Source of the DNA: a virus
Taxonomy: Duplodnaviria > Heunggongvirae > Uroviricota > Caudoviricetes
IMG/VR virus record: IMGVR_UViG_2568526411_000004
Length of the DNA: 64,000 nucleotides
Reading direction: 5' to 3' (one strand)
The translations under genes and the position numbers were made by a program. Below are positions 1 through 64,000 of the stretch, piece after piece. Below the pieces are notes generated by a model. The model made no database searches, was not told where the DNA came from, and worked only from the letters and a program-made list of their open reading frames with translations. Position 1 is the stretch's first letter; the number at the start of each line of letters is the position of its first letter.

Positions 1-820
1 GGCACTGTTGCAAATAGTCGGTGGTGATAAACTTATCATCCCCTTTTGCTGATGGAGCTGCACATGAACCCATTCAAAGGCCGGCATTTTCAGCGTGACA
101 TCATTCTGTGGGCCGTACGCTGGTACTGCAAATACGGCATCAGTTACCGTGAGCTGCAGGAGATGCTGGCTGAACGCGGAGTGAATGTCGATCACTCCAC
201 GATTTACCGCTGGGTTCAGCGTTATGCGCCTGAAATGGAAAAACGGCTGCGCTGGTACTGGCGTAACCCTTCCGATCTTTGCCCGTGGCACATGGATGAA
301 ACCTACGTGAAGGTCAATGGCCGCTGGGCGTATCTGTACCGGGCCGTCGACAGCCGGGGCCGCACTGTCGATTTTTATCTCTCCTCCCGTCGTAACAGCA
401 AAGCTGCATACCGGTTTCTGGGTAAAATCCTCAACAACGTGAAGAAGTGGCAGATCCCGCGATTCATCAACACGGATAAAGCGCCCGCCTATGGTCGCGC
501 GCTTGCTCTGCTCAAACGCGAAGGCCGGTGCCCGTCTGACGTTGAACACCGACAGATTAAGTACCGGAACAACGTGATTGAATGCGATCATGGCAAACTG
601 AAACGGATAATCGGCGCCACGCTGGGATTTAAATCCATGAAGACGGCTTACGCCACCATCAAAGGTATTGAGGTGATGCGTGCACTACGCAAAGGCCAGG
701 CCTCAGCATTTTATTATGGTGATCCCCTGGGCGAAATGCGCCTGGTAAGCAGAGTTTTTGAAATGTAAGGCCTTTGAATAAGACAAAAGGCTGCCTCATC
801 GCTAACTTTGCAACAGTGCC
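1..820 (+). mobile_element. IS26: IS26 (IS6 family) copy 1, complete 820 bp, terminal inverted repeats GGCACTGTTGCAAA / TTTGCAACAGTGCC
   Basis: The exact IS26 left end is at 1-14 and the right end at 807-820. It encodes the canonical 240-aa Tnp26. Confidence 0.95.
46..768 (+). CDS. tnp26: IS26 transposase (DDE, IS6 family)
   Basis: The 240-aa protein MLMELHMNPFKGRHFQRDIILWAVRWY... is identical to the second copy at 22354-23076. Confidence 0.95.
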   Translation: MLMELHMNPFKGRHFQRDIILWAVRWYCKYGISYRELQEMLAERGVNVDHSTIYRWVQRYAPEMEKRLRWYWRNPSDLCPWHMDETYVKVNGRWAYLYRAVDSRGRTVDFYLSSRRNSKAAYRFLGKILNNVKKWQIPRFINTDKAPAYGRALALLKREGRCPSDVEHRQIKYRNNVIECDHGKLKRIIGATLGFKSMKTAYATIKGIEVMRALRKGQASAFYYGDPLGEMRLVSRVFEM

Positions 821-3370: not shown

Positions 3371-3405
3371 AGCATCGCACCTTACAAGCTACTGACCGCT
3401 TATGC

Positions 3406-6405: not shown

Positions 6406-6699
6406 TCATATCTTCAACTCCGCTGTGTCGGTTTGTTTTGGATAACAATTGCAGCCTATCGACAATTCCTCACTGACACCGCCCCACTCTGCCACTATAT
6501 CTAGGTCGCTGTGATTGTAGGCTTGATTGTGACCGCAAGGTTTCCATGTATTTAAACCGCGTGGGCGTAGCTTACCTCTAAACATCTTCCAAACAGAGCC
6601 TTTTATAGCGAATGTGCCATCACCGTTTACTTCGTGAACTGTAACTCGGCTACCGTTGCGTGTGCGGTAGTCGCCTGCTTTAGTTATTAGTTGAGTCAT
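6406..6699 (-). CDS. hypothetical protein
   Basis: ATG at 6699 (MTQLITKAGDY) downstream of an ATATCGAAACGAACAA leader; the track start at 6783 is an upstream extension. Confidence 0.5.
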   Translation of the reverse strand: MTQLITKAGDYRTRNGSRVTVHEVNGDGTFAIKGSVWKMFRGKLRPRGLNTWKPCGHNQAYNHSDLDIVAEWGGVSEELSIGCNCYPKQTDTAELKI

Positions 6700-6707
6700 G
6701 ATTAAAC

Positions 6708-6735
6708 CCGTTGTTCGTTTCGATATGTATTGTGA
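6708..6735 (-). promoter_or_regulatory. leader-family element CATATCGAAACGAACAACGGG
   Basis: Variant of the ATCGAAACAA leader. Confidence 0.45.
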
Positions 6736-7240
6736 TATTTCATAGCTGGATATGCACCGCATGGCATAGGCAATATTCATCAATCGCCTATTCCGATTAA
6801 CCGCATGTTTGTGCCGAGGACATGCCAGTTTTTGCGTGGAACATTCCGAGGATTCGCCGTGATATTTTGAATTGGCAGCTGTGAGGAATAGCCTCGGCGC
6901 GAAAATTTTTGTTCCACTTGCCTGTGTGTATGTGTGATTTTTTAGGAAATATTTAGTTCAGGAAATTTGTTGGGATTTTTCATTTTCTCTATAAAGATTT
7001 TAAGTCATGACCATTCCGATGTGAAAACGCTAGAAGAAGTGAAAATGCCCCCCCTTCCCCCCCATAGCCTAAAAAGACATTTACATGAGAAGGAAGGGAG
7101 AAGGCATCTACTTCATCCGCGCCACATCGGAATGCGAACATTCCGTAGTTGGTAAACGCCGACCCTAAGCAAAACGCACCCCTATCGAAAAGCAAGATGG
7201 GTCCACTGCCAGCAGTGAAAACTATCTTGGGTGCAATTGT

Positions 7241-7258
7241 AGTCAGTGCTTACTGATT
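7241..7258. promoter_or_regulatory. degenerate palindrome AGTCAGT-GCTT-ACTGATT
   Basis: Same half-site family, one mismatch. Confidence 0.35.
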
Positions 7259-7721
7259 TTTCAAGTGTAAGAAGTTTGGCTGAAACAATTTTTTAACAAC
7301 AGAATCCACCGCTCCCTTCGGTCGCTCCATGCACATTGCACAACTCCTCTCTCTATGTGTTATTACTCTATAACCGCCTATACACATACTTCCTATTGTT
7401 CTTACTCTCCGTGTATGATGAATTGTCCTTCTAGCTATACTTAGTGAAATCCTTATTGTGTATAGTGTTCAGTATGTACTTATCATTATCCGTGTAGTTG
7501 TTAGAGTTTTTGTCTGTATTGATTGATTGTTTTTAAGATCGTTTGCAATTGTTCTATTGTTTATCAGTTTGATTATTTAGATAGCATTATGAAAATATGC
7601 TGTTTGAGTTAAATTTGCTGTTCTATGGCTTAGTTGTAGATTAGTTGGATTGTTTGTCAGTAAGTTATCTATTCTTTAGTACGTTTTGGAATTTAGTTGT
7701 CTGGTGTTTGAATAGTAAGTC

Positions 7722-7779
7722 CGTATTATCATATTACCGTGTGTATGTATGGTCGTATGGTAATACGGTAATATGATAT
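7722..7779. other. lox-like inverted-repeat site A (TATCATATTACCGT arms around GTGTATGTATGGTCGTATG)
   Basis: About 80% identical over ~55 bp to site B at 56203-56254, which sits next to the tyrosine recombinase gene. Confidence 0.45.
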
Positions 7780-8124
7780 TTCAGCCTAGAGATAAATTGC
7801 CTCATTCTGTGCCTGATAATTTGTTATAGCGTTCAGGTAAAAAATACAGCCTTAAAGTAAATTTGCTATTTGCGCATAGAATCGTTTTAGAGAGCGTTTT
7901 GCTTGTGTTTAGTATGATTCATCATCTTAGTGATAAAAGCGTCTCTAACGCGCGTTTATAAGCGATTATAAGCGGTTTAAGTGAGAGTGTTTGCTTATCT
8001 GGTTTTAGCATGGTTCGGCGGGTAAGTAATGAATTAGTTACAAGTCAGTTTATTTGTATAAAAATACTTATAAATCAATGATGTATAATAATATCTCTAT
8101 AACTGTCTGTTTTTGCTTATTTTA

Positions 8125-8165
8125 GATAAAAAAGAGCCAGCTCTAAAGAGGGGCGTAGAGCTGGC
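8125..8165 (-). terminator. rho-independent terminator (GCCAGCTCTA...AGAGCTGGC)
   Basis: Stem-loop followed by TCTTTTTTATC on the minus strand. Confidence 0.55.
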
Positions 8166-8430
8166 AAAAAGGTGACTTGTGAGACTTTTTTCTCTATCAA
8201 TACACTCGAATATTCTATCTAAAGAGCTTCGTTGTCTTGATGTGAGTATTGTATAAATACCGAGTAGGATTGAGAAGGGGAGGCGTTTATATCGCCTGTC
8301 GTGTTTCCTATTAAACTCATTATAATGATTGCATGTAACGTGAATTGAGTACGGCGTATGTTGACCGCATTAATTGTTCTTGGAGCGATAGGGCTCATTT
8401 ATTTGATGCTCAAAGCCATGAAGTGATTAG

Positions 8431-8474
8431 ACAAAAAGCCCTGAGCATTCAGGGCTATTATTTAGTTATTTTCT
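8431..8474. terminator. bidirectional terminator (AGCCCTGA-gcat-TCAGGGCT)
   Basis: The hairpin is flanked by T-runs on both strands, downstream of the 8546 gene. Confidence 0.65.
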
Positions 8475-8545
8475 AATTGCGCAAATATCTGCTCAAAAAT
8501 GATCGATTTCATAAAAAAAGTGCAAATATTTGCTCAATATTGGTC

Positions 8546-9088
8546 TTAATAGTTTCGGTAAACCTTTCCTTCAGCTACAAGATAATCACTAATTAAAGCG
8601 TCGCGCCCGTAACGTTCATAGTCGAAATAACCTTGAATGTCCTCTGGTATTTCCAAAGCAGAACATTCATCAATTAAATAGCGTCCAAAATCATCGTCAT
8701 TTTCGTAGTCACACACGTAACGATCTTCGTGCCACTCTTTAACGTTTGACCAATCAGCATAGTTGCCTTCAACTAATGCAGCGTATGTGCCAACTTCTTT
8801 AACTTCATCAAGATCAAGGCTTACTAAAAACTCAATTAAAGTTTCAAGCATTTTGAATGATGAGACTTTTATCTCTTCGTTGGCCCAAGTGTCTTCTAGC
8901 TGCCAAAACTCTATCTCTACATCGCCTAACTCATCTATGAAGTCGTCGTATTCATCAAAGTAAAGGTTAAAACCGTGTTGATGCGTAAAGCTGAAGCCTT
9001 CTAAGCGAAAACGTTTCTTGTTATCAGGGTTAGAAAACTTCGCTAAAAACTGCTCTATAGTCACTTGATCGTTAGTTTCGTAAGTCAT
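8546..9088 (-). CDS. hypothetical highly acidic protein
   Basis: 180 aa, rich in D/E (DEYDDFIDELGD, YENDDDFG); ATG start with the conserved promoter and leader upstream. Confidence 0.6.
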   Translation of the reverse strand: MTYETNDQVTIEQFLAKFSNPDNKKRFRLEGFSFTHQHGFNLYFDEYDDFIDELGDVEIEFWQLEDTWANEEIKVSSFKMLETLIEFLVSLDLDEVKEVGTYAALVEGNYADWSNVKEWHEDRYVCDYENDDDFGRYLIDECSALEIPEDIQGYFDYERYGRDALISDYLVAEGKVYRNY

Positions 9089-22217: not shown

Positions 22218-22301
22218 ATTATCTACCAGCTGCTATCCGAAGATGATGAACTGCTACTGTCATACGATGAGCCGCCGTCTGAGCTGTACGATGAAGAACT
22301 C

Positions 22302-23121
22302 GGCACTGTTGCAAAGTTAGCGATGAGGCAGCCTTTTGTCTTATTCAAAGGCCTTACATTTCAAAAACTCTGCTTACCAGGCGCATTTCGCCCAGGGGAT
22401 CACCATAATAAAATGCTGAGGCCTGGCCTTTGCGTAGTGCACGCATCACCTCAATACCTTTGATGGTGGCGTAAGCCGTCTTCATGGATTTAAATCCCAG
22501 CGTGGCGCCGATTATCCGTTTCAGTTTGCCATGATCGCATTCAATCACGTTGTTCCGGTACTTAATCTGTCGGTGTTCAACGTCAGACGGGCACCGGCCT
22601 TCGCGTTTGAGCAGAGCAAGCGCGCGACCATAGGCGGGCGCTTTATCCGTGTTGATGAATCGCGGGATCTGCCACTTCTTCACGTTGTTGAGGATTTTAC
22701 CCAGAAACCGGTATGCAGCTTTGCTGTTACGACGGGAGGAGAGATAAAAATCGACAGTGCGGCCCCGGCTGTCGACGGCCCGGTACAGATACGCCCAGCG
22801 GCCATTGACCTTCACGTAGGTTTCATCCATGTGCCACGGGCAAAGATCGGAAGGGTTACGCCAGTACCAGCGCAGCCGTTTTTCCATTTCAGGCGCATAA
22901 CGCTGAACCCAGCGGTAAATCGTGGAGTGATCGACATTCACTCCGCGTTCAGCCAGCATCTCCTGCAGCTCACGGTAACTGATGCCGTATTTGCAGTACC
23001 AGCGTACGGCCCACAGAATGATGTCACGCTGAAAATGCCGGCCTTTGAATGGGTTCATGTGCAGCTCCATCAGCAAAAGGGGATGATAAGTTTATCACCA
23101 CCGACTATTTGCAACAGTGCC
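22302..23121 (-). mobile_element. IS26: IS26 copy 2, complete, inverted relative to copy 1
   Basis: GGCACTGTTGCAAA at 22302-22315 is the reverse complement of the right end; TTTGCAACAGTGCC is at 23108-23121. The flanking 8-mers AAGAACTC and ACTACAAC differ, so there is no simple TSD. Confidence 0.95.
22354..23076 (-). CDS. tnp26: IS26 transposase
   Basis: The 240-aa protein is identical to the one encoded at 46-768. Confidence 0.95.
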   Translation of the reverse strand: MLMELHMNPFKGRHFQRDIILWAVRWYCKYGISYRELQEMLAERGVNVDHSTIYRWVQRYAPEMEKRLRWYWRNPSDLCPWHMDETYVKVNGRWAYLYRAVDSRGRTVDFYLSSRRNSKAAYRFLGKILNNVKKWQIPRFINTDKAPAYGRALALLKREGRCPSDVEHRQIKYRNNVIECDHGKLKRIIGATLGFKSMKTAYATIKGIEVMRALRKGQASAFYYGDPLGEMRLVSRVFEM

Positions 23122-28026: not shown

Positions 28027-28389
28027 ATGAAAAGATTTAGCGAGTTTTTAGCTGAGCGTAAAAACAAATCTAAAAGCGAAAGAATTTTAGAGCTTCAAAG
28101 AGTTTTTAAATCAACTCCTGAAGTTAGCGAAGAAGAGAAGGAACGCTTAGTTAAAAGATATTTGTCACAACACGCCAGCATTAAAGAGGCGGTTGAAGTT
28201 ATGACGTCTTTAAAGCTTTCTCAGGAGTATGCGAAGGTTATGGATGAAATTCATAACGATGTGTTGGCTCGCGCGGCTGTAGCAATGGAGTTAAATGCAT
28301 CTCCTGCTTCTGAGCGTTTGGTGCGCGGAGTTGCTCGCAGTGTTATTCGTGATCATCACGAGGAACTCGAACGTCTGGCTTATAAGTAA
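28027..28389 (+). CDS. putative antitoxin partner of the Doc toxin (not Phd-like)
   Basis: 120-aa helical, charged protein. Its stop overlaps the doc start (TAATG). Confidence 0.4.
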   Translation: MKRFSEFLAERKNKSKSERILELQRVFKSTPEVSEEEKERLVKRYLSQHASIKEAVEVMTSLKLSQEYAKVMDEIHNDVLARAAVAMELNASPASERLVRGVARSVIRDHHEELERLAYK

Positions 28390-28808
28390 TGTATGATCCA
28401 GCGCCATTAATTAACGCAACGCTTGTTGAAGCGATTCATAGCGAGATTTTAGACAGCGTAGAAGGAGGCATGAGAGGTCCAACTAATTATGGTCTTCTCG
28501 AAAGTGCTTTAAATAGAGTTCAGCAGTATGTTTATTATGACGGTTTGAATGACATTTATGAGATTGCGGCATGGTATGGGATTTCTATTTCCACTCAACA
28601 TGCATTCTCAGACGGCAATAAGCGAACTGGATTAACCGTAATGTTGACTTACCTTCGTATGCAAGGCGTCTATATCGAGCCTAATCAAGATCTTGATGAC
28701 ATGATGGTTGATATTGTGCAAAGCGCACAATCAACAGAAGATGGAAATCATAAAGAGATTGCTGAGGCTTTAGCTGAGTATCTCTATCAGTATGTTCATC
28801 AGTTATAG
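28389..28808 (+). CDS. doc: Doc/Fic-family toxin
   Basis: Fic/Doc motif HAFSDGNKRTG (HxFxDGNKR). Confidence 0.8.
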   Translation: MYDPAPLINATLVEAIHSEILDSVEGGMRGPTNYGLLESALNRVQQYVYYDGLNDIYEIAAWYGISISTQHAFSDGNKRTGLTVMLTYLRMQGVYIEPNQDLDDMMVDIVQSAQSTEDGNHKEIAEALAEYLYQYVHQL

Positions 28809-51759: not shown

Positions 51760-53817
51760 TTACTTGAGAAGTAATGAGCGAAGCTCGCCAATAACCGTGT
51801 TAGGTAAGTCGGCAACAGATCTCAAAACGACATTTTTTGGATAGAACTCTTTTACGCTTTGCGTATTGATTCCAATTCCAATAACTTCAAATCCTGAGCG
51901 AGAAATTTCCTGAACGGTTGTTTTGAGGTGTTTGTTTAGCGTTGGGGTCGGGCCGCTACCATTTGGATTACCATCACTTAACACCATAATGATTTTCCGT
52001 GCTTCTTTTTGAGCGCTTAGCCGCTGTGCCGCAATTTGAAGACACTCCCCATCAACATTCGTGTTTAAGAACCTAACATGAGGCAACCATGCAAAACGAT
52101 GGCGGTTTTCGAGCGTTAAGCGCTCATTAAACCCTTTAATGACTGGCATATATAAACCTTCCGTTCTTGTGTATCGAATCGTTTTGCCATTATGCGTAAA
52201 GCTTTCTTTTGCGTGTGGATCACCGTTTTTAGTTGTGAATCCAATAACTTCATGATTAATGTTGAGACGGTCAAGAACAGATGACATTGCATATGACGCT
52301 TGAGAGGCTGTGTTAATGCGTTCGCCCTTCATTGAACCTGAACAGTCAATTAAGAGGGTTACAGCGACATCTTTGGAACGATTCTCTTGTTTGCGACGGA
52401 ATATACGGTCGTCTCTAACAGCTAAACGAGAAAGTGACGCCTGGTTAATTTTTCCTTGCCGTAAACCGTTCTCCCATGTTCTTGCTGATCGAGCAACCAT
52501 AAGACGTTCCAAATCTTTTTGAATTGTTCCCGTAATTTTATTGGTTGCTCTATCTAAATCATCCATAAAGGACGATTTGTAATTTCTGCCAATTTTTAAT
52601 GTTTCGATAACGTCATATCTGTTTGTATAAACGAGATATGGCGCAGTGCAAGCAAAGTCTTTTGCTTCATTGCTTAACTGAACGGCAAACGAGGCGTCAA
52701 AATCATTCGCTGACTCCTTGTCGATCTCTTGCAAAATCGCCTTAGCGTCTAAATTAAGCTTTCTTAATTCCTTTTTCTTTTCTGACGTCTGATTCTCAGA
52801 GTCGCTAGACTCGTTGCCTTCATTGCTGTCGCCCTTACCATTCGATTTGTCAGACTTATTTTGGTGGCGCTCACTTTTACCATCTGATTCGTTCCCACCA
52901 TCCTCATCTTCGGATTGACCGCCTTTACCTCCATCACCTTGTTCGTCTTGCTCATCAGCATCGCCTGAAGACTCACCGGCACCATCTTCTTCAGAATCGC
53001 CATCATCTCCCTCACCAGCGCCTTGCTGACCGTCTGCATCTGAACCTTCATCTTCGTCAGAATTTCCGCCACCTGAGCCGCCTGGTTGCTCATCTTCATC
53101 TTCGTTAGATTGACCATTTCCTTGTTGATCACATTCTTCTTCCTGTTGTTGATCTTGCGGGGGTTGTTTCTCGTCTTCGGGACTTTTTAGAGCTTTGTAA
53201 ATTTCTTTAGCTAAGCGAACGGCATCCTGAGACGACTGCATTGATTGAAGTTGTGGCGCAAGGTGTTTGATGGCAGCATGAATATTTGGCAACAAATGAA
53301 TCTTGTCGCGCATATAAATTTCAAAAGTTGATTGACCCGAAAGGCTGCGGAGATATGGAGTGGCCAAGATACCCATAATCTTTGTTTCATCAACATCGGG
53401 ATGCGCCATAACTTCTTTAAATTTCGGAGTAATCATCTCTTCTAAAAAGAAGTGTGCGGTGTGATCTAAGTTAGAACCAGAACCTCTAAATTTTTCAGCC
53501 ATGCATTTTTCGATGCGGGCGTCTTCTAAAATATTTGCGAGACTTTTTAAAAGGTAATCGCCAACGCTATTTAGGGCTTTAAAATCAGAGAAAAGAACAT
53601 GTGCAACCTCATGATCTAAGAATCCCTGTATTGCTCTTATAAGTTCTTCTGATGCATTGTCCGAAAGGTACGGTAAATTGATAGAAATCGGATTTCCATT
53701 AATGTCAGACTTGACGTATGCTTCCATACCTATTTGAGTTACTTCAATTTTTTTCTCAATGAGAGCATTTGTGATTGCAACGATAGCGTTGCGTAAATTA
53801 GCAATGCGATTGTTCAT
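51760..53817 (-). CDS. CobT-like vWA-domain protein with long acidic/Gly-rich low-complexity insert
   Basis: vWA MIDAS LLIDCSGSM; central D/E/G/S-rich region. Confidence 0.65.
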   Translation of the reverse strand: MNNRIANLRNAIVAITNALIEKKIEVTQIGMEAYVKSDINGNPISINLPYLSDNASEELIRAIQGFLDHEVAHVLFSDFKALNSVGDYLLKSLANILEDARIEKCMAEKFRGSGSNLDHTAHFFLEEMITPKFKEVMAHPDVDETKIMGILATPYLRSLSGQSTFEIYMRDKIHLLPNIHAAIKHLAPQLQSMQSSQDAVRLAKEIYKALKSPEDEKQPPQDQQQEEECDQQGNGQSNEDEDEQPGGSGGGNSDEDEGSDADGQQGAGEGDDGDSEEDGAGESSGDADEQDEQGDGGKGGQSEDEDGGNESDGKSERHQNKSDKSNGKGDSNEGNESSDSENQTSEKKKELRKLNLDAKAILQEIDKESANDFDASFAVQLSNEAKDFACTAPYLVYTNRYDVIETLKIGRNYKSSFMDDLDRATNKITGTIQKDLERLMVARSARTWENGLRQGKINQASLSRLAVRDDRIFRRKQENRSKDVAVTLLIDCSGSMKGERINTASQASYAMSSVLDRLNINHEVIGFTTKNGDPHAKESFTHNGKTIRYTRTEGLYMPVIKGFNERLTLENRHRFAWLPHVRFLNTNVDGECLQIAAQRLSAQKEARKIIMVLSDGNPNGSGPTPTLNKHLKTTVQEISRSGFEVIGIGINTQSVKEFYPKNVVLRSVADLPNTVIGELRSLLLK

Positions 53818-53834
53818 AATAGATCCTTAGCGAT

Positions 53835-53852
53835 TCAGTCAGTGATGACTGA
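53835..53852. promoter_or_regulatory. palindromic operator variant TCAGTCA-GTGA-TGACTGA
   Basis: Upstream of the cobT-like gene. Confidence 0.55.
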
Positions 53853-53976
53853 TTATTTATGATCATATTATGACGATTTAGAGTTGGGGTGTATAGAGTT
53901 TTGTTTGGCTTCAGCAAGAGGGCGACAAATCACCGCCTCAATCTTGCTAACTTCACTAATGATATTCTTATAAAAA

Positions 53977-54177
53977 TTATGGATTTATCACTCTAACTAT
54001 ACTTTTTGGAGCGCAGGTATTAATTACCTCAATGTCCCCTAAATTCAGATGCTTATAGCGCTTTATAGTGTAAAACCCGTCATTTAGCAGTGTTTCTACA
54101 CCTTCTGTTTTTTCTAAAATTTCAGCAAGTTCATCCAAGTCTACAGTTTGGAATTGATCATTCAATGTCACAGTCAT
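53977..54177 (-). CDS. small hypothetical protein
   Basis: 66 aa. Confidence 0.3.
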   Translation of the reverse strand: MTVTLNDQFQTVDLDELAEILEKTEGVETLLNDGFYTIKRYKHLNLGDIEVINTCAPKSIVRVINP

Positions 54178-54404
54178 TTAAATCACCATTCTGATTTATC
54201 AAGATTTTGAAGAGGCTATTAATATACGTCTCATCATTTCAGCCCCGTATATTATAGTTTGGGTTCGCTCAAAAGCTTTTAATAAAATCAGTCAGAAGTG
54301 ACTGTTTGAACATTTAAAAGCCAGTTGTTGATCGTATTCATAAATTCTCCTTATGTGATAATTAACAAAACTTAATACAGTGTGAAGTTTTGTAAGTTGA
54401 TGGG

Positions 54405-54468
54405 GTTTATATAAACTGTTAATTTTTAGACAATTTATATAAACGGTTAATTTTAAATAGTTAATTTT
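54405..54468. repeat. iteron-like direct repeats (TTTATATAAAC x2, GTTAATTTT x3)
   Basis: Seen directly in the ~600-bp noncoding region upstream of the HTH / recombinase / par module. Confidence 0.5.
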
Positions 54469-54778
54469 GGACTTTCTACATTGCCATATTGTAATTTTTT
54501 CCTTTTTTGACTAAAAAAAATAACAAAAAATCTGGAAAAAATTAGTCCATTCAATCGAATACACTTTGCATTCGCTGCATCTAGTTTGTAAACTTGGGCG
54601 TATATAATTCACGAGTGACTGATTTTTTCTATAAAATTAGTCCCCCCACCACCTATAATAGTGCTGTAATTCAAAATCAGTCAGTTCTGAGTATATATTT
54701 GGTCTCATGTTCTGGATTATTACAAAGTGAATTACGACTCATCATAGGAAAAATTTAACTCTGTATTTGGAGAGGCAA

Positions 54779-55243
54779 ATGGCTAAAAATCGCAACAATA
54801 TGAACGTGGCAGAATATCTCGCAGACTTAATCGAGAATTCTCCTAAAAGCCAGCGTGAGATTGCTGAGGAAATAGGTTTTAAACGCCCTAACGTTTTATC
54901 GATGATTAAGAGTGGTGAAACTCGCTTACCGATCGATAAAATCAAGCCTACCGCTTTAGCATTAGGCGAAAACCCTACTCGCCTTCTTATACGCGTTCTA
55001 AAAGAATATGCACCGGACTTAATTGATGTTGTCGAGTCAATCACTGGGCAAACTCCATTAACCCCTAACGAAATTAATATCGTCAAAACTATTCGCAGTG
55101 TAACTATGGAAGACCCTTCTTTTTATGGAGACACTCGTGACAAGTTTGTTGACGTAATTAAGGAAATGGAAAGCGAGACAATTAAGCACCGCGCTGAGCT
55201 TCAAAAAAATAAGGAGGAATCGGCATTCAGATCTCAGAAATGA
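54779..55243 (+). CDS. XRE-family HTH transcriptional regulator
   Basis: SQREIAEEIGFKRPNVLSMIKSGE HTH; ATG with a GGAGAGG SD. Confidence 0.7.
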   Translation: MAKNRNNMNVAEYLADLIENSPKSQREIAEEIGFKRPNVLSMIKSGETRLPIDKIKPTALALGENPTRLLIRVLKEYAPDLIDVVESITGQTPLTPNEINIVKTIRSVTMEDPSFYGDTRDKFVDVIKEMESETIKHRAELQKNKEESAFRSQK

Positions 55244-55278
55244 AACAAGTGTAAATACCTCATTTGCCTTCCCTAAAA

Positions 55279-55316
55279 ATGCCCGAATCAGATCGGGCAT
55301 TATTTTATGTTTTTTA
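55279..55316 (+). terminator. rho-independent terminator (ATGCCCGA-atcaga-TCGGGCAT + T-run)
   Basis: After the HTH gene. Confidence 0.75.
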
Positions 55317-55607
55317 AATACTTGGCTAACTTTTCGCATATTCACTTCCTCTTACTTTTTCCCAAACTTGAAAACGTTACAAATTCAAATTTAGCACAGC
55401 TTATCCATTAAAATCCATCATTAAAATAGCTGCATATTCAGAAAAGTCTGTATACGTCGAATGATGACGCACTTTCGTTGTTTCGTCCATAAAAAATATA
55501 ATAAAAGGCTTCTTTTATTACATTTTTTATTTTTCGACATGTGGTAGACTGTTTTTATATCCTTTCCGTTTTTGGAAAAATGTAATAAAAAATTATTTGG
55601 TCGATTT

Positions 55608-56195
55608 ATGGCAAGAACAACAACTGGAAAAGCCCCATATGTGTCAGAAGATGATCTTGAGATTACTTTAGCCACTCAAACGGGCGTAAATGCATTACGG
55701 AACAAATGTGTTTTGTATTTCTCACACTTCCTTGGGCTTCGCGCTAAAGAATTATCAATGTTAAAGGTCGGCGATGTTTACGATGTGAAGAAGGGTAAGC
55801 TGAAGGATATTATTCGATTGCTCGGTAATATTACTAAAGGCAACCGCTACCGAGAGGTATTCCTGGTCAATCCAATCGCTAGATCACTGGTAGAAGAATA
55901 CATAACAAAAGAAAGACCAAAGGATCCAGACGCACCTTTATTTTTATCGCAGAAGGGCGGTCCATTCTCACCAAATAGCATGGTGACCATGATTAATAAC
56001 TGTTATAAGAAGGCTGGTATTCAAGCAACCAGCCATTCCGGTCGACGTTCCTTTGCCACAAGGCTAATAAGAAAGGGCGGTGATATTTATTCAATTCAAC
56101 AATTGATGGGGCATAGCTCAATCCTGACCACGCAAAAATATTTTGCATCGGATCCGGAATTGCTCCGCAGTATAGCCGAGAAATTAAACGACTAA
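55608..56195 (+). CDS. small tyrosine recombinase (catalytic domain only; FimB/FimE-like size)
   Basis: The HSGRRSFATRL (HxxR) and LMGHSSILTTQKY (catalytic Tyr) motifs. An alternative start is at 55572. Confidence 0.8.
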   Translation: MARTTTGKAPYVSEDDLEITLATQTGVNALRNKCVLYFSHFLGLRAKELSMLKVGDVYDVKKGKLKDIIRLLGNITKGNRYREVFLVNPIARSLVEEYITKERPKDPDAPLFLSQKGGPFSPNSMVTMINNCYKKAGIQATSHSGRRSFATRLIRKGGDIYSIQQLMGHSSILTTQKYFASDPELLRSIAEKLND

Positions 56196-56202
56196 GCGTA
56201 TT

Positions 56203-56254
56203 ACCGTATTACCATGTGTGTGTATAGTCATATGATAATACGGTAATACCAATA
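56203..56254. other. lox-like site B: 18-bp inverted arms GTATTACCGTATTAYCAT around a ~16-bp spacer
   Basis: Immediately 3' of the recombinase gene; related to site A at 7722-7779. Confidence 0.5.
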
Positions 56255-56396
56255 TGTATTTTAAATACTATCTTTATGGTCTTATTTACAACTTAGCATC
56301 ACGTCTTACAGCGCTTCTAGTTTACAACTTCTATTCAATTCACTAGAATGATTCTGTTTTATAGGCGTTTATGCCAACTTAACTAAGGAAATTTTG

Positions 56397-57074
56397 ATGA
56401 TTATCGTGTACGCCAATACAAAAGGCGGCGTGAGCAAAACAACTCTTGCCACATCTACTGTGGCCGCGCTGCACCAAAGAGGTAACACTGTTATCGGTAT
56501 TGACCTAGATGCCAACAAAGGCTCTTTCGAATGGAGCCAAGCACGAGAAGCCGAAAACGAAGTAGAAAACGGTAAATTTTTTCATTTAACAGGCAATATC
56601 GAAGACGAAGCTCGTCGCTTAAATGAAGAATATGATTACGTCGTAATTGACACGCCGGGATATGACTCTGCCGAAATGCGCTCGGCTCTTTTAGCTGCGG
56701 ACGTTATTGTTTCGCCTCTTAAAGTTGGAGCTCAAGATCTCAAAGGGCTTTATACGCTTTTGGATTTAGTTGATTTGATCAATGACACTGTTCGCAAACC
56801 GGCTGGCGAGAACCCAATTGTCGTGCATCCTGTTATTACCCAAGCTCCTGCGGCCGATAATTCAGTTGATTTACGCGACACCATTAAAGCACTTGAAGCG
56901 ATTCAAAACGAAGCCCCACGTCTTCAAACAATTATGCGTTTACGTATGCCATATAGCCGCGCTTATCGAAACAACGTCGGCATTACTGAAATGGAAATGG
57001 ACGTAAACAATCGAGTTGCAATTAAAGAATTTGAACAGTTACTTGAGGAGATCATTGAAAATGGCAAACGATAA
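56397..57074 (+). CDS. parA: ParA partition ATPase (type Ib, no N-terminal HTH)
   Basis: Deviant Walker A KGGVSKTT. Confidence 0.85.
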   Translation: MIIVYANTKGGVSKTTLATSTVAALHQRGNTVIGIDLDANKGSFEWSQAREAENEVENGKFFHLTGNIEDEARRLNEEYDYVVIDTPGYDSAEMRSALLAADVIVSPLKVGAQDLKGLYTLLDLVDLINDTVRKPAGENPIVVHPVITQAPAADNSVDLRDTIKALEAIQNEAPRLQTIMRLRMPYSRAYRNNVGITEMEMDVNNRVAIKEFEQLLEEIIENGKR

Positions 57075-57477
57075 AAATGCACCATTGCCTCAGCGTGCAG
57101 CACGCGAAGCTAAAGAGTCTATCTTAAATTCCGCTCCTGTAGCAGCTCAACCTTTAGCGCCAAAAGTTGAAGCTCCGCAAGTAGAAGAACCTGAAGCTGA
57201 AGTGGTTGAAGTTCAACAAAAAGCAACTGAAGCGACTAACTTTCTAAACGACGCAGCACCGTGGCGTAAAAAGTCCACAATGTCTGAAGAAGAGTTGATG
57301 CTTGCAACCAAGAAGTTTTCAGCAAACCTTCCGATGGAATTATATTTAAGACTCAACTTTATTGTTGCTATTGAGCAGTTAAATAGTCCAAAAAAACTTG
57401 ACATGACGCAGATTGTGACTAAAGCTCTAATGGAGAGTACAGAAAAGACTCTCAAAAAAATGGGTTACAAGGTCTAA
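57061..57477 (+). CDS. small ParB/ParG-like centromere-binding protein
   Basis: 138 aa, immediately downstream of parA and overlapping it. Confidence 0.5.
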   Translation: MANDKNAPLPQRAAREAKESILNSAPVAAQPLAPKVEAPQVEEPEAEVVEVQQKATEATNFLNDAAPWRKKSTMSEEELMLATKKFSANLPMELYLRLNFIVAIEQLNSPKKLDMTQIVTKALMESTEKTLKKMGYKV

Positions 57478-57490
57478 GAAAGCCATTTGA

Positions 57491-57517
57491 GAAAGTCGCC
57501 TTTGGGCGGCTTTTTTA
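57491..57517 (+). terminator. rho-independent terminator (GTCGCC-tttg-GGCGGC + TTTTTT)
   Basis: After the par operon. Confidence 0.7.
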
Positions 57518-57518
57518 T

Positions 57519-57550
57519 GCAAAGAAAAGGCCCTGAGATAATCAGGGCCT
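57519..57550 (-). terminator. terminator hairpin AGGCCCTGA-gataa-TCAGGGCCT (minus-strand)
   Basis: Convergent terminator for the 57663 gene. Confidence 0.6.
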
Positions 57551-57662
57551 TGTAAGACTACAGATGCAGAATGAATTATAGGAGTAAGTTCAATATTTTA
57601 ATGTATTTTTGAGAAATGATTAATAGTAAATACTAAATAATAATAGAATTGCCAAAATAGTC

Positions 57663-58067
57663 CTAGAATAGTGTATTTTTCTGGATGCGCCCGCTTCTGA
57701 GCCAAAAATCTTTATTGGCTCTGACAAATTCATCTTCTGTAAAAATGCGGTTTACCCACCAAGAAAAGAAGTTGTAGTCATCCGCTTCGAGTTGTATAAC
57801 CGCATTATACGCAGGAGGCACATGCACCGTGATTGTTGTGCCCCTGTCGTCATATCTTATGCGAACAATTGGTGACGTTTCTAAGTCAGTTTTAGCGCTT
57901 ATTTCAACGATAATAGCGTTATCTCGATGATTTTGAATCATCGAGTATTCAGCTTTAAATACGTTCAAATACGCGGTAGCAAGTTGTCTTGCGGCAGCGA
58001 GTACGTCTAATCTGATCTGAAGCATTCGAGTCACCACAGGCTCATTGTTCAGATCTATTTTTAACAT
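57663..58067 (-). CDS. hypothetical protein
   Basis: 134 aa. Confidence 0.45.
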   Translation of the reverse strand: MLKIDLNNEPVVTRMLQIRLDVLAAARQLATAYLNVFKAEYSMIQNHRDNAIIVEISAKTDLETSPIVRIRYDDRGTTITVHVPPAYNAVIQLEADDYNFFSWWVNRIFTEDEFVRANKDFWLRSGRIQKNTLF

Positions 58068-63504: not shown

Positions 63505-64000
63505 TTTTTGACTCCATATTGTAGCTTGAGAGTTACCGCGCTCATTTCATTGACGACAATTGCCGATCTGTAGAGTGAGCGCACCATTTCTGGTGGAATT
63601 TCATTAGGGTCTTTGCCGGGAGGGAGGATGGCTATTCGTACAGTGATGCCACATTTACGAACCATTAGAGCTGCTTCGATTGCATCTTGAATTGCTCGTC
63701 GCTCTCCATCCCACATAAAGGTCAAGCGTTGCAAACCAGCCTCTTTGAGCTTTAACAGTTCTGCGAATTGTGTTTCTTCATCGCCGTATGAAAGGTGTTT
63801 ACCGAACGAACCAATGACACCGACATTGCAAAGTGCGTCATCTTCTGAAAAGGCTTGATGTATAGCCATGACGTCAAAAGCGCCTTCACCCATCGCAATA
63901 TCTACGCATCCATACGCGTTATTACCGTTGTAAAGAAAGGCAGCTGTAGACGCATAACCTGAAGGAAAAAGATATTTCTTCTCAGCTAAGCCTGTAATGT
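63501..64000 (-). CDS. DnaG-like primase, Toprim domain (partial; 5' end beyond window)
   Basis: Toprim EGxxD (MGEGAFDVMAIHQA) and GKDPNE. The reading frame stays open to the window edge. Confidence 0.55.
   Translation of the reverse strand, partial: ITGLAEKKYLFPSGYASTAAFLYNGNNAYGCVDIAMGEGAFDVMAIHQAFSEDDALCNVGVIGSFGKHLSYGDEETQFAELLKLKEAGLQRLTFMWDGERRAIQDAIEAALMVRKCGITVRIAILPPGKDPNEIPPEMVRSLYRSAIVVNEMSAVTLKLQYGVKK

Follow-up and report, generated by a model that had tools for sequence, protein, structure and literature searches.

The closest described relatives of the DNA analysed herein are the 'AB' phage-plasmids of Acinetobacter, a group defined by Pfeifer et al. 2021 (PMC7969092) for which no phage is known, and which comprises two subgroups, 'highly divergent' in their replication genes and parA (PMC7969092). 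One plasmid of this kind, pABTJ2, is 110,967 bp in length (Huang et al. 2014, PMC4411360). The sequence considered in this study is a stretch of 64,000 nucleotides from IMG/VR record IMGVR_UViG_2568526411_000004, referred to throughout as the window, and its source belongs to the same family as pABTJ2 and the AB group (PMC7969092, PMC4411360), being circular, approximately 110 kb in size and equipped with phage structural genes, a Rep_3 initiator and parA. As judged by sequence comparison, the window is from an AB-group phage-plasmid of the subgroup that possesses a Rep_3 initiator of 282 amino acids (aa). Our overall reading, to which we assign a probability of about 0.8, is that the element is a known circular A. 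baumannii phage-plasmid of ~107–114 kb, in which the region at 53.9–57.6 kb constitutes a lysogeny and stability island of three transcription units, and not an origin of replication.

Outside this family, several well-known elements provide points of comparison. P1 encodes a type Ia ParA with a helix–turn–helix (HTH)-type ParB, a Cre recombinase of 343 aa and two domains that acts at a loxP site of 13-8-13 layout, and C1 operators that are asymmetric 17-mers. The element studied here resembles P1 in combining a tyrosine recombinase and one adjoining palindromic site with a partition operon, a doc toxin and a scattered, repressor-like palindrome. Its partition system, however, is of predicted type Ib with a ribbon–helix–helix (RHH) partner, its recombinase comprises 195 aa and has a candidate site of 16-6-16 layout plus a third arm, its scattered sites are 18-bp palindromes, and no sequence relationship to P1 is detectable beyond the superfamily level. 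The N15 SopAB system is of type Ia, with four dispersed centromere sites. The present element is similarly a phage-plasmid whose centromere-like sites are located far apart in the genome, but displays a type Ib system with two such sites (more in the other subgroup). Finally, the stoperators of mycobacteriophage L5 are asymmetric 13-mers bound by a monomeric repressor. Here the likeness lies in the presence of some 30 repressor-type sites, mostly within short intergenic gaps, oriented with transcription and found amongst both early and late genes; the sites of the window differ in being palindromes, and have a candidate binder only.

Identity and lifestyle of the element

Over its full length, region 54000–57600 of the window matches 27 complete circular A. 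baumannii plasmids of 104.6–113.7 kb with 100 % identity. A further 128 Acinetobacter plasmids show a match limited to positions 55361–56169, at ~94.7 % identity, and all 155 database records matching the region are plasmids. A megablast comparison of the region with deposited phage genomes gave no match, in agreement with the published absence of a known AB-group phage. One of the identical plasmids, NZ_CP026705.1, aligns with the window from end to end (window position 64000 corresponding to record position 97326), except for rearrangements bounded by IS26 and a missing resistance island. Copies of IS26 are located at window positions 1–820 and 22300–23121, and relative to NZ_CP026705.1 the window is without an IS26-bounded msr(E)/mph(E)/aph(3')-Ia island, as well as ~2.5 kb near record positions 31.2–33.7 kb. 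According to its annotation, NZ_CP026705.1 encodes terminase, portal, major capsid, tape-measure, tail, holin and endolysin-like genes, together with a RepB-family initiator and many genes of DNA metabolism; the terminase, portal, capsid, tail, holin and RepB genes all fall outside of the window. With regard to pABTJ2, this plasmid belongs to the other subgroup, and its HTH, ParA and ParA partner proteins are 30–35 % identical to those of the window.

A preliminary description of the window had suggested an extrachromosomal phage-plasmid, and had named integration into the chromosome as one observation that would speak against it. The former is borne out by the 27 identical circular plasmids, which harbour phage structural and lysis genes, although the phage-plasmid nature of the element, whilst correct, is already published (PMC7969092, PMC4411360). 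As to integration, the HTH regulator gene of the island is listed in 4409 blocks of a public assembly collection, and the longest contig carrying it measures 50–200 kb in 3739 of these, 0.2–1 Mb in 10 and more than 1 Mb in none. Judged by these contig sizes across the 4409 assembly blocks, there is no sign of chromosomal integration.

Partition and recombination genes with their candidate sites

Our analysis supports the view that the XRE-type regulator and the tyrosine recombinase form, along with the type Ib ParA and its small partner, a plasmid-type stability module. The features of its recombination and partition portion are as follows.

55491–55528, no strand assigned: candidate recombination core AAAAAATATAATAAAA-GGCTTC-TTTTATTACATTTTTT, with 16-bp inverted arms and a 6-bp spacer
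55575–55590, plus strand: third recombinase arm GAAAAATGTAATAAAA, a possible autoregulatory site, 17 bp upstream of the recombinase start codon
55608–56195, plus strand: short tyrosine recombinase of 195 aa, catalytic domain only (Pfam Phage_integrase 5.7e-27; PHROG 216 3e-57)
56198–56249, no strand assigned: centromere or operator candidate A, comprising two tandem GTATTACC octamers, a 20-bp gap and two inverted octamers
7721–7778, no strand assigned: copy B of the octamer element, 48.5 kb from A and identical to it at 47 of 62 positions
56321–56349, plus strand: parA promoter candidate TTTACA-17-TAGAAT, the best match of the scan (10 of 12), conserved in relatives
56397–57074, plus strand: type Ib ParA ATPase of 225 aa, from family matches and a deviant Walker A motif, KGGVSKT, at residues 9–15
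57061–57477, plus strand: ParA partner of 138 aa, overlapping the parA stop codon
57495–57551, no strand assigned: back-to-back terminator hairpins closing parAB and the converging minus-strand genes (minus hairpin at 57551–57527; plus hairpin GTCGCC..GGCGGC followed by T6)

ParA lacks an N-terminal DNA-binding domain. It matches the ParA_partition model with 5e-29 over model positions 1–203, scoring 101 bits against an NCBIfam cut-off of 180 bits, and the ParA-like family PHROG 164 with 2.3e-41; sequence matches in the PDB include MipZ and ParF of TP228. In the 138-aa protein encoded behind it, neither Pfam nor NCBIfam detects a ParB domain or any other match, and sequence and profile searches against the PDB returned nothing useful. 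Only 21 homologues are detectable amongst 1.84 billion representative proteins by exhaustive search (a word-indexed search gave 3), and these share the pattern PWR..MSEDEL..S.N.P.EL.LRL along with an N-terminal LPxR motif. The structural model displays a disordered N-terminal tail and a confident β–α–α C-terminal domain of the ribbon–helix–helix fold. The protein is thus predicted to be an RHH protein, which is the type of partner expected for type Ib systems. Whilst the preliminary description was right in placing a small partner gene after parA, its term 'small ParB-like' does not hold, as the product is no homologue of ParB/Spo0J and adopts the RHH fold in the model. The true ParB-domain genes of the element are located near the terminase gene, outside of the par operon.

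In sequence and model, the combination of ParA with an RHH partner is consistent with the architecture of a type Ib partition system. Compared with the described systems of this type (ParF/ParG/parH of TP228, delta/omega of pSM19035 and ParA/ParB of pCXC100), the partner shows no detectable sequence similarity, is longer at 138 aa, and is modelled with one additional helix and with a longer loop separating the two C-terminal helices. The candidate site is also distinct, consisting of 2+2 inverted 8-bp units present at two distant loci.

Two kinds of repeat precede parA. The first, TTTACAACTT, had been put forward as a candidate centromere or operator, and does indeed occur twice upstream of the gene, at 56285 and 56321; a 10-mer in two copies is, however, weak evidence when taken alone. 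Relatives of ~80–85 % identity do not conserve the first copy, and the second contains the −35 hexamer of the parA promoter candidate, so that the repeat is real but its role as a centromere is not sustained. The second kind is the GTATTACC octamer, four units of which form element A. This element, the better candidate, lies 70 bp upstream and directly follows the recombinase stop codon; it has a folding z-score of −5.4, and retains its arms in relatives. Exactly two copies of this octamer element of ~55 bp are found in the whole plasmid, and the distal one, B, sits in a stretch of ~1.7 kb (~6784–8545) without an annotated gene, between the ArdA gene and the next gene.

The same arrangement, with other sequences, recurs in the second subgroup, where the partner is 35 % identical. 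There, a different par-proximal repeat is present, the 19-mer TCTATATAGATTTCTACAT, and this, along with related copies, recurs ~6.7 kb beyond the ParB and helicase genes of that subgroup, which is the equivalent distal, gene-poor position. A 12-bp par motif of the other subgroup is counted 12 times against a mean of 1.7 and a maximum of 10 in shuffled sequence; as this excess is modest, the argument is based on the exact 19-bp repeat and its position. In a third plasmid, pTG29392_2, yet another motif (ATGGGT repeats) occupies the same par-proximal place. This change of motif along with the partner, at two loci, is the best available evidence that the octamer elements are binding sites of the partner. 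Under this proposal, the RHH partner would bind the GTATTACC element upstream of parA as well as the second copy 48.5 kb away, would stimulate ParA via its flexible N-terminal tail, and would repress its own promoter.

An explanation of the GTATTACC element solely as a transcriptional operator, or as a terminator of the recombinase gene, with no centromere function, is quite improbable, even though the element is flanked by the recombinase stop codon and the parA promoter, is capable of forming a hairpin, and would be bound by a class of protein with a known second role, since the RHH partners of type Ib systems double as repressors (ParG, omega). Against it, the second copy at 7721–7778 follows no gene, the hairpin has no T-run after it, and the centromere and operator of type Ib systems are usually the same or overlapping repeats.

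The recombinase upstream of this element consists of little more than a catalytic domain. Alignment to the XerA structure 5hxy, together with the sequence, places all of the catalytic residues (R45, K77, H143, R146, H169 and Y178), and only ~25 residues precede the domain, the N-terminal core-binding domain of Cre and Xer being absent. The closest matches are XerA, XerC and XerD, at 84–99 bits against cut-offs of 220–335 (99 bits against 220 for XerA) and only from model positions 98–123 onward. The inverted arms around a 6-bp spacer are likewise reminiscent of dif, yet the scores are far below cut-off, the core-binding domain is missing and the arms are unrelated to dif.

The candidate core is situated 80 bp upstream of the recombinase start, with a folding z-score of −7.0. 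Its arm motif is found nowhere else in the plasmid of either subgroup, leaving one core per genome, and the site is also present on 18 IMG/VR viral contigs. Across 41 loci with the core site the arms are invariant, whilst the spacer reads GGCTTC, TGTATC or, once, TGCATC. The layout is also retained in pTG29392_2, where a recombinase of 59 % identity is accompanied by other arms, AATGCCCTAAAA-TACATA-TTTTAGGGCATT, and a third arm. A scan for the recombinase in one genome per species matched only an A. geminorum contig and one unrelated Chloroflexi sequence, and revealed no chromosomal context. Multimer resolution is suggested by the single core in each monomer, by the link to parAB and by the lack of integrated copies, and the 195-aa recombinase is probably a multimer resolvase on this sequence evidence. 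It would resolve plasmid multimers at the single 16-6-16 core, and perhaps circularise incoming DNA in the manner of Cre at loxP.

Membership of the phage integrase family, and the RefSeq annotation as a site-specific integrase, might instead suggest that the enzyme serves chromosomal integration, with the palindromic core as attP. This is very improbable given a protein of only 195 aa that has neither an arm-binding nor a core-binding domain, the 155 matching records that are plasmids throughout, and the contig sizes of the HTH gene described above. Moreover, three diverged versions of the module link the recombinase with parAB, and in one of these RepB and its iterons are nearby. A FimB/FimE-type invertase flipping a promoter segment has also to be considered, as the protein is of similar length to FimB and FimE and shows a weak full-length match to FimB-type tyrosine DNA invertases (2.3e-13; 50 bits against a cut-off of 221), and as arms 2 and 3 are mutually inverted, 48 bp apart. 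Such an interval is very short for inversion, however, there is a single complete core per genome, and no flipped variant exists amongst the 41 loci with the core site, making an invertase highly improbable.

The recombinase, ParA and RHH trio is not confined to large elements. In pTG29392_2, a 55-kb Acinetobacter plasmid (L008, 2700–2900 and 3989–5893), its members are 59, 42 and 31 % identical to those of the window, respectively. A RepB gene in divergent orientation is situated 1.4 kb from the trio, the two being separated by an array of eight iterons. Its occurrence in this smaller plasmid suggests that the trio behaves as a portable stability cassette.

The HTH regulator, dispersed palindromes and AT-rich region

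Upstream of the recombinase lies a regulator gene preceded by an AT-rich region, with the following features.

53835–53852, no strand assigned: palindrome, perfect copy, 18 bp upstream of the start of the CobT-like gene
53977–54177, minus strand: ORF66, an acidic open reading frame (ORF) of 66 aa, divergent from the HTH gene; a coding sequence in the identical plasmid (PHROG 8838)
54178–54778, no strand assigned: AT-rich regulatory region of low G+C content (GC) separating the divergent ORF66 and HTH genes, without a DnaA box or RepB iteron and read as no replication origin
54288–54305, no strand assigned: palindrome with 1 mismatch, unchanged in relatives and lying 111 bp upstream of ORF66
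54406–54468, no strand assigned: two 21-bp direct repeats and a partial third, from a repeat search
54605–54622, no strand assigned: degenerate palindrome with 2 mismatches, overlapping a weak plus-strand promoter-like match and containing TGACTGAT
54677–54694, plus strand: palindrome TCAGTCAGTTCTGAGTAT, containing TCAGTCAGT, invariant in relatives
54779–55243, plus strand: HTH regulator of 154 aa, putatively of XRE type, with a long helix at its C terminus, a candidate self-regulated repressor (Pfam, PHROG and model)
55278–55310, plus strand: intrinsic terminator after the HTH gene, its stem kept and its loop differing in relatives and the other subgroup

The palindrome, TCAGTCA-N4-TGACTGA, is matched 17 times in the window at ≤2 mismatches, against 0.15 matches expected. 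In the full plasmid there are 30 sites, 27 of which fall in annotated intergenic DNA. Most of the copies in the window precede the start of a gene on the same strand by 18–118 bp, whereas those of the late region fill very short gaps, for example behind the capsid gene and between the terminase and portal genes. In the transcribed orientation the consensus reads TCAGTCAGTACTGACT and continues with ATACT, creating a −10-like TATACT, and a −10-like hexamer follows most copies. The densest cluster is the HTH locus, with four sites in 850 bp (53835, 54288, 54605 and 54677). The last of these has 3 mismatches to the 18-mer and was detected with a related 16-mer core; it sits in the spacer of a promoter-like TTCAAA-18-TATATT (54670–54699), 85 bp upstream of the HTH start. 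According to the full-plasmid site list, repB and parA have no palindrome in front of them, and neither do the recombinase gene and the doc gene pair. The sequences TGACTGAT and TCAGTCAGT, previously noted as isolated operator half-sites at 54612 and 54679, do exist, at 54616 and 54677 respectively, but are not isolated, both being parts of copies of this dispersed 18-bp palindrome.

Further palindromes in the window include those at 3404, 15596, 19711, 21816, 27865, 29873, 33311, 37765, 44232, 51704 and 61581, and on sequence L003 there are copies at 7206, 13848, 17558, 27764 and 46528. A 179-aa gene annotated as the RNA chaperone Hfq, located between the initiator and a DnaB-like helicase (L003, 46580–47119, outside of the window), has a perfect copy in front of it. 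The CobT-like gene at the left of the cluster (51760–53817, minus strand) encodes a VWA protein (CobT_C 2.6e-37) with a long, acidic, low-complexity insert, and forms a pair with a MoxR-type AAA ATPase encoded by the gene upstream of it. Both subgroups retain this pair beside the stability module.

The plasmid of the other subgroup contains 0 TCAGTCA-N4-TGACTGA sites. In their place are 28 sites of a related yet different palindrome, TAGTAAG-NN-CTTACTA, at matching intergenic positions, these being moxR/cobT, terminase/portal, tape measure/next tail gene and parB/helicase. The set as a whole resembles, in sequence and placement, a subgroup-specific repressor network, and by analogy the most economical reading would be a self-regulated prophage repressor with dispersed operators. 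The palindrome might alternatively act as an RNA hairpin (in processing, stability or attenuation) or as a promoter element, and not as an HTH operator. Several copies occupy very short gaps within late operons, the terminator scan picks up two copies, and the differences between subgroups are symmetric, with base pairing kept. Within one genome, however, the left half (window plus strand) varies at its two outer positions without compensating change and the centre four positions vary freely, and the uncompensated variation favours a protein-binding site over an RNA hairpin. A −10-like hexamer after most copies, the avoidance of maintenance genes and the clustering at the HTH gene also speak for operators, and the hairpin or promoter-element explanation is fairly unlikely. 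A separate idea, that the palindrome is a two-box promoter for the element's sigma-like protein, was rejected, as the boxes would be only ~8 bp apart and Pfam detects no sigma domain in the homologue of that protein encoded by the window.

The Pfam matches of the HTH protein to HTH_19 (20.8 bits against a cut-off of 30.2) and HTH_3 are both below cut-off, whilst PHROG 8, 'transcriptional regulator', is matched with 1.3e-10, and the only PDB sequence match is Rco of pLS20, with E = 0.19. The structural model is of low confidence (predicted local distance difference test, pLDDT, of 62), and is too poor for statements on the C-terminal half; its N-terminal domain superposes on the XRE repressors DdrO, C.AhdI, SinR, P22 C2 and Stl at 1.6–2.0 Å over ~60 residues. 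The gene would be a monocistronic unit, and its product a self-regulated repressor binding the palindromes in front of ~30 early and late operons. That this particular protein binds the 18-bp palindrome is a tentative assignment, to which we give slightly less than an even chance.

The AT-rich region had also been proposed to carry iterons, on account of the repeats TTTATATAAAC (x2) and GTTAATTTT (x3). Both are present, and both prove to be pieces of a single 21-bp direct repeat, TTTATATAAAC(T/G)GTTAATTTT, with copies at 54406–54426 and 54434–54454 (95 % identical) and a partial third at 54454–54468, each copy opening with the 12-bp palindrome (G/A)TTTATATAAAC. A 20-mer of the repeat occurs 2 times in the window against 0.12 expected, although Tandem Repeats Finder did not call it. 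Their reading as iterons is not supported: the origin, with iterons of its own, lies elsewhere in the identical plasmid. In the identical plasmid the only annotated initiator is the Rep_3 gene at record positions 92807–93655 (Rep3_N 2.7e-23), and the oriV (record 92.5–93.7 kb) presents four tandem 22-bp iterons, TTTTCGGTAGTTAAAAATTCC, upstream of rep, together with a perfect DnaA box, TTATCCACA, an AT-rich stretch and, immediately ahead of the rep start, a fifth iteron. This oriV is located 3.7–4.8 kb past the window end at position 64000, with rep ~10 kb from the AT-rich region. Vegetative replication of the plasmid would, in our model, start at the iteron oriV beside repB, ~4 kb past the window end.

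An iteron-type plasmid origin at 54190–54770, with the direct repeats as its iterons, is most improbable. In its favour, the region carries 2.5 copies of the 21-bp repeat along with A-tracts, and 54001–55000 is the lowest-GC 1-kb bin of the window (GC 0.336). There is, however, no RepB iteron in the window, and hence none in 54190–54770, and no DnaA box at ≤1 mismatch between 52222 and 64000. The flanking genes are the 66-aa ORF and the HTH regulator, with no initiator gene adjacent, the Rep_3 gene being ~10 kb off with its own 4+1 iterons and DnaA box. Fewer than three phased, matching copies exist, as the repeats are spaced by 28 bp (then 14 bp for the partial copy) and 28 bp is not helically phased. 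They also occupy the least conserved part of the intergenic region: in relatives of 80–85 % identity this part is 75–79 % identical, against 93–97 % for the flanking segments 54151–54300 and 54501–54750, with the flanking genes at only 75–85 %. A lytic-cycle origin could conceivably be situated in 54190–54770. In the other subgroup a 64-aa ORF stands at the position of ORF66, without clear similarity to it. An Rfam scan of 53500–58000 and 6600–8700, with E up to 1, gave sub-threshold chance matches only, and no tRNA genes are present in the window.

Apparent exchange between subgroups, and implications

When the modules of the two subgroups are compared, the recombinase stands apart from its neighbours. 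Protein identity between the window and the other subgroup is 30 % for the HTH regulator, 32 % for ParA, 35 % for the partner and 39 % for the CobT-like protein, but 98.5 % for the recombinase. At the DNA level, ~55500–56160 is 99–100 % identical to the other subgroup, and only 68–89 % to the closest relatives of the window's own subgroup. The left edge of this block of identity falls at the spacer of the core site, where GGCTTC of the window's lineage differs at 3 of 6 positions from TGTATC, the spacer of all the others. Sequence comparison indicates that the recombinase gene was recently replaced between subgroups, with its left boundary at the core spacer.

A contig of 222,013 bp, AYOH01000009.1 (GCA_000516095.2; L022 and L027), carries both reciprocal hybrid junctions, one with this subgroup to the left and the other subgroup to the right, and the second reversed. 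Both crossovers map between the spacer and 160 bp rightward of it, and the junctions, at contig positions of ~23.8 and ~130.8 kb, are 106,967 bp apart, which is the exact length of a free plasmid of this type. From its sequence, the contig looks like a fusion of one element per subgroup through the shared cassette. A contig of 238,815 bp (L021, GCA_028737535.1) also carries the module. One could go further, and propose that the shared cassette is a docking and exchange point between phage-plasmids, at which the spacer variant would set the site-specific partners, and that the subgroups' own repressor networks (~30 sites) and two-locus centromeres would have co-evolved, yielding elements that are non-immune to each other, compatible, co-resident and able to trade modules. 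We consider this extended proposal somewhat unlikely.

Amongst the remaining genes, the Doc gene mentioned in the preliminary description, another element of plasmid maintenance, is present at 28389–28808.

28027–28808, plus strand: Doc toxin gene (28389–28808; RefSeq annotation, Fic/DOC 2.8e-14) and an upstream ORF of 120 aa

The 120-aa ORF belongs to no Pfam family. The pair sits amongst the nucleotide-metabolism genes nrdB, thyX and dut.

A number of points weigh against the overall reading of the island given at the outset. All of the evidence is computational, and every assignment of binding or function is inferred from sequence. The HTH protein is tied to the palindrome by circumstantial evidence, and other regulators encoded by the element could bind the latter; symmetric changes between the palindromes of the subgroups would also keep an RNA or DNA hairpin; and promoter-like matches in the region number 16 against 13.3 expected in shuffled sequence. 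The recombinase is without the core-binding domain of Cre and Xer and is of the size of FimB and FimE, with resolution being inferred from context. The 222-kb contig is explicable as an assembly join across the shared 0.7-kb cassette, and the crossovers fit homologous recombination as well as site-specific exchange. Finally, the reading gives no role to the 21-bp direct repeats at 54406–54468.

No published description of the RHH partner, octamers, core site, recombinase swap or dispersed palindromes was found, and a full-text search for the motif sequences came back empty. Whilst the kinds of system are known, the finer anatomy of the stability module, as read from sequence, appears to be undescribed. 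Since the element and its plasmid lifestyle are already known, the value of this analysis resides in that anatomy, and no new kind of system is put forward. Clinical A. baumannii commonly carries AB-type phage-plasmids; the HTH gene of the present one occurs in >4,000 assembly blocks. Both defence systems and resistance genes (for macrolides and aminoglycosides in the identical plasmid) are encoded by members of the family. Telling the origin, centromere and resolution site apart serves typing, the construction of mini-replicons and curing strategies. The possession of different operators and centromere motifs, alongside one shared cassette, offers a testable route to the co-existence, fusion and module exchange of these elements.

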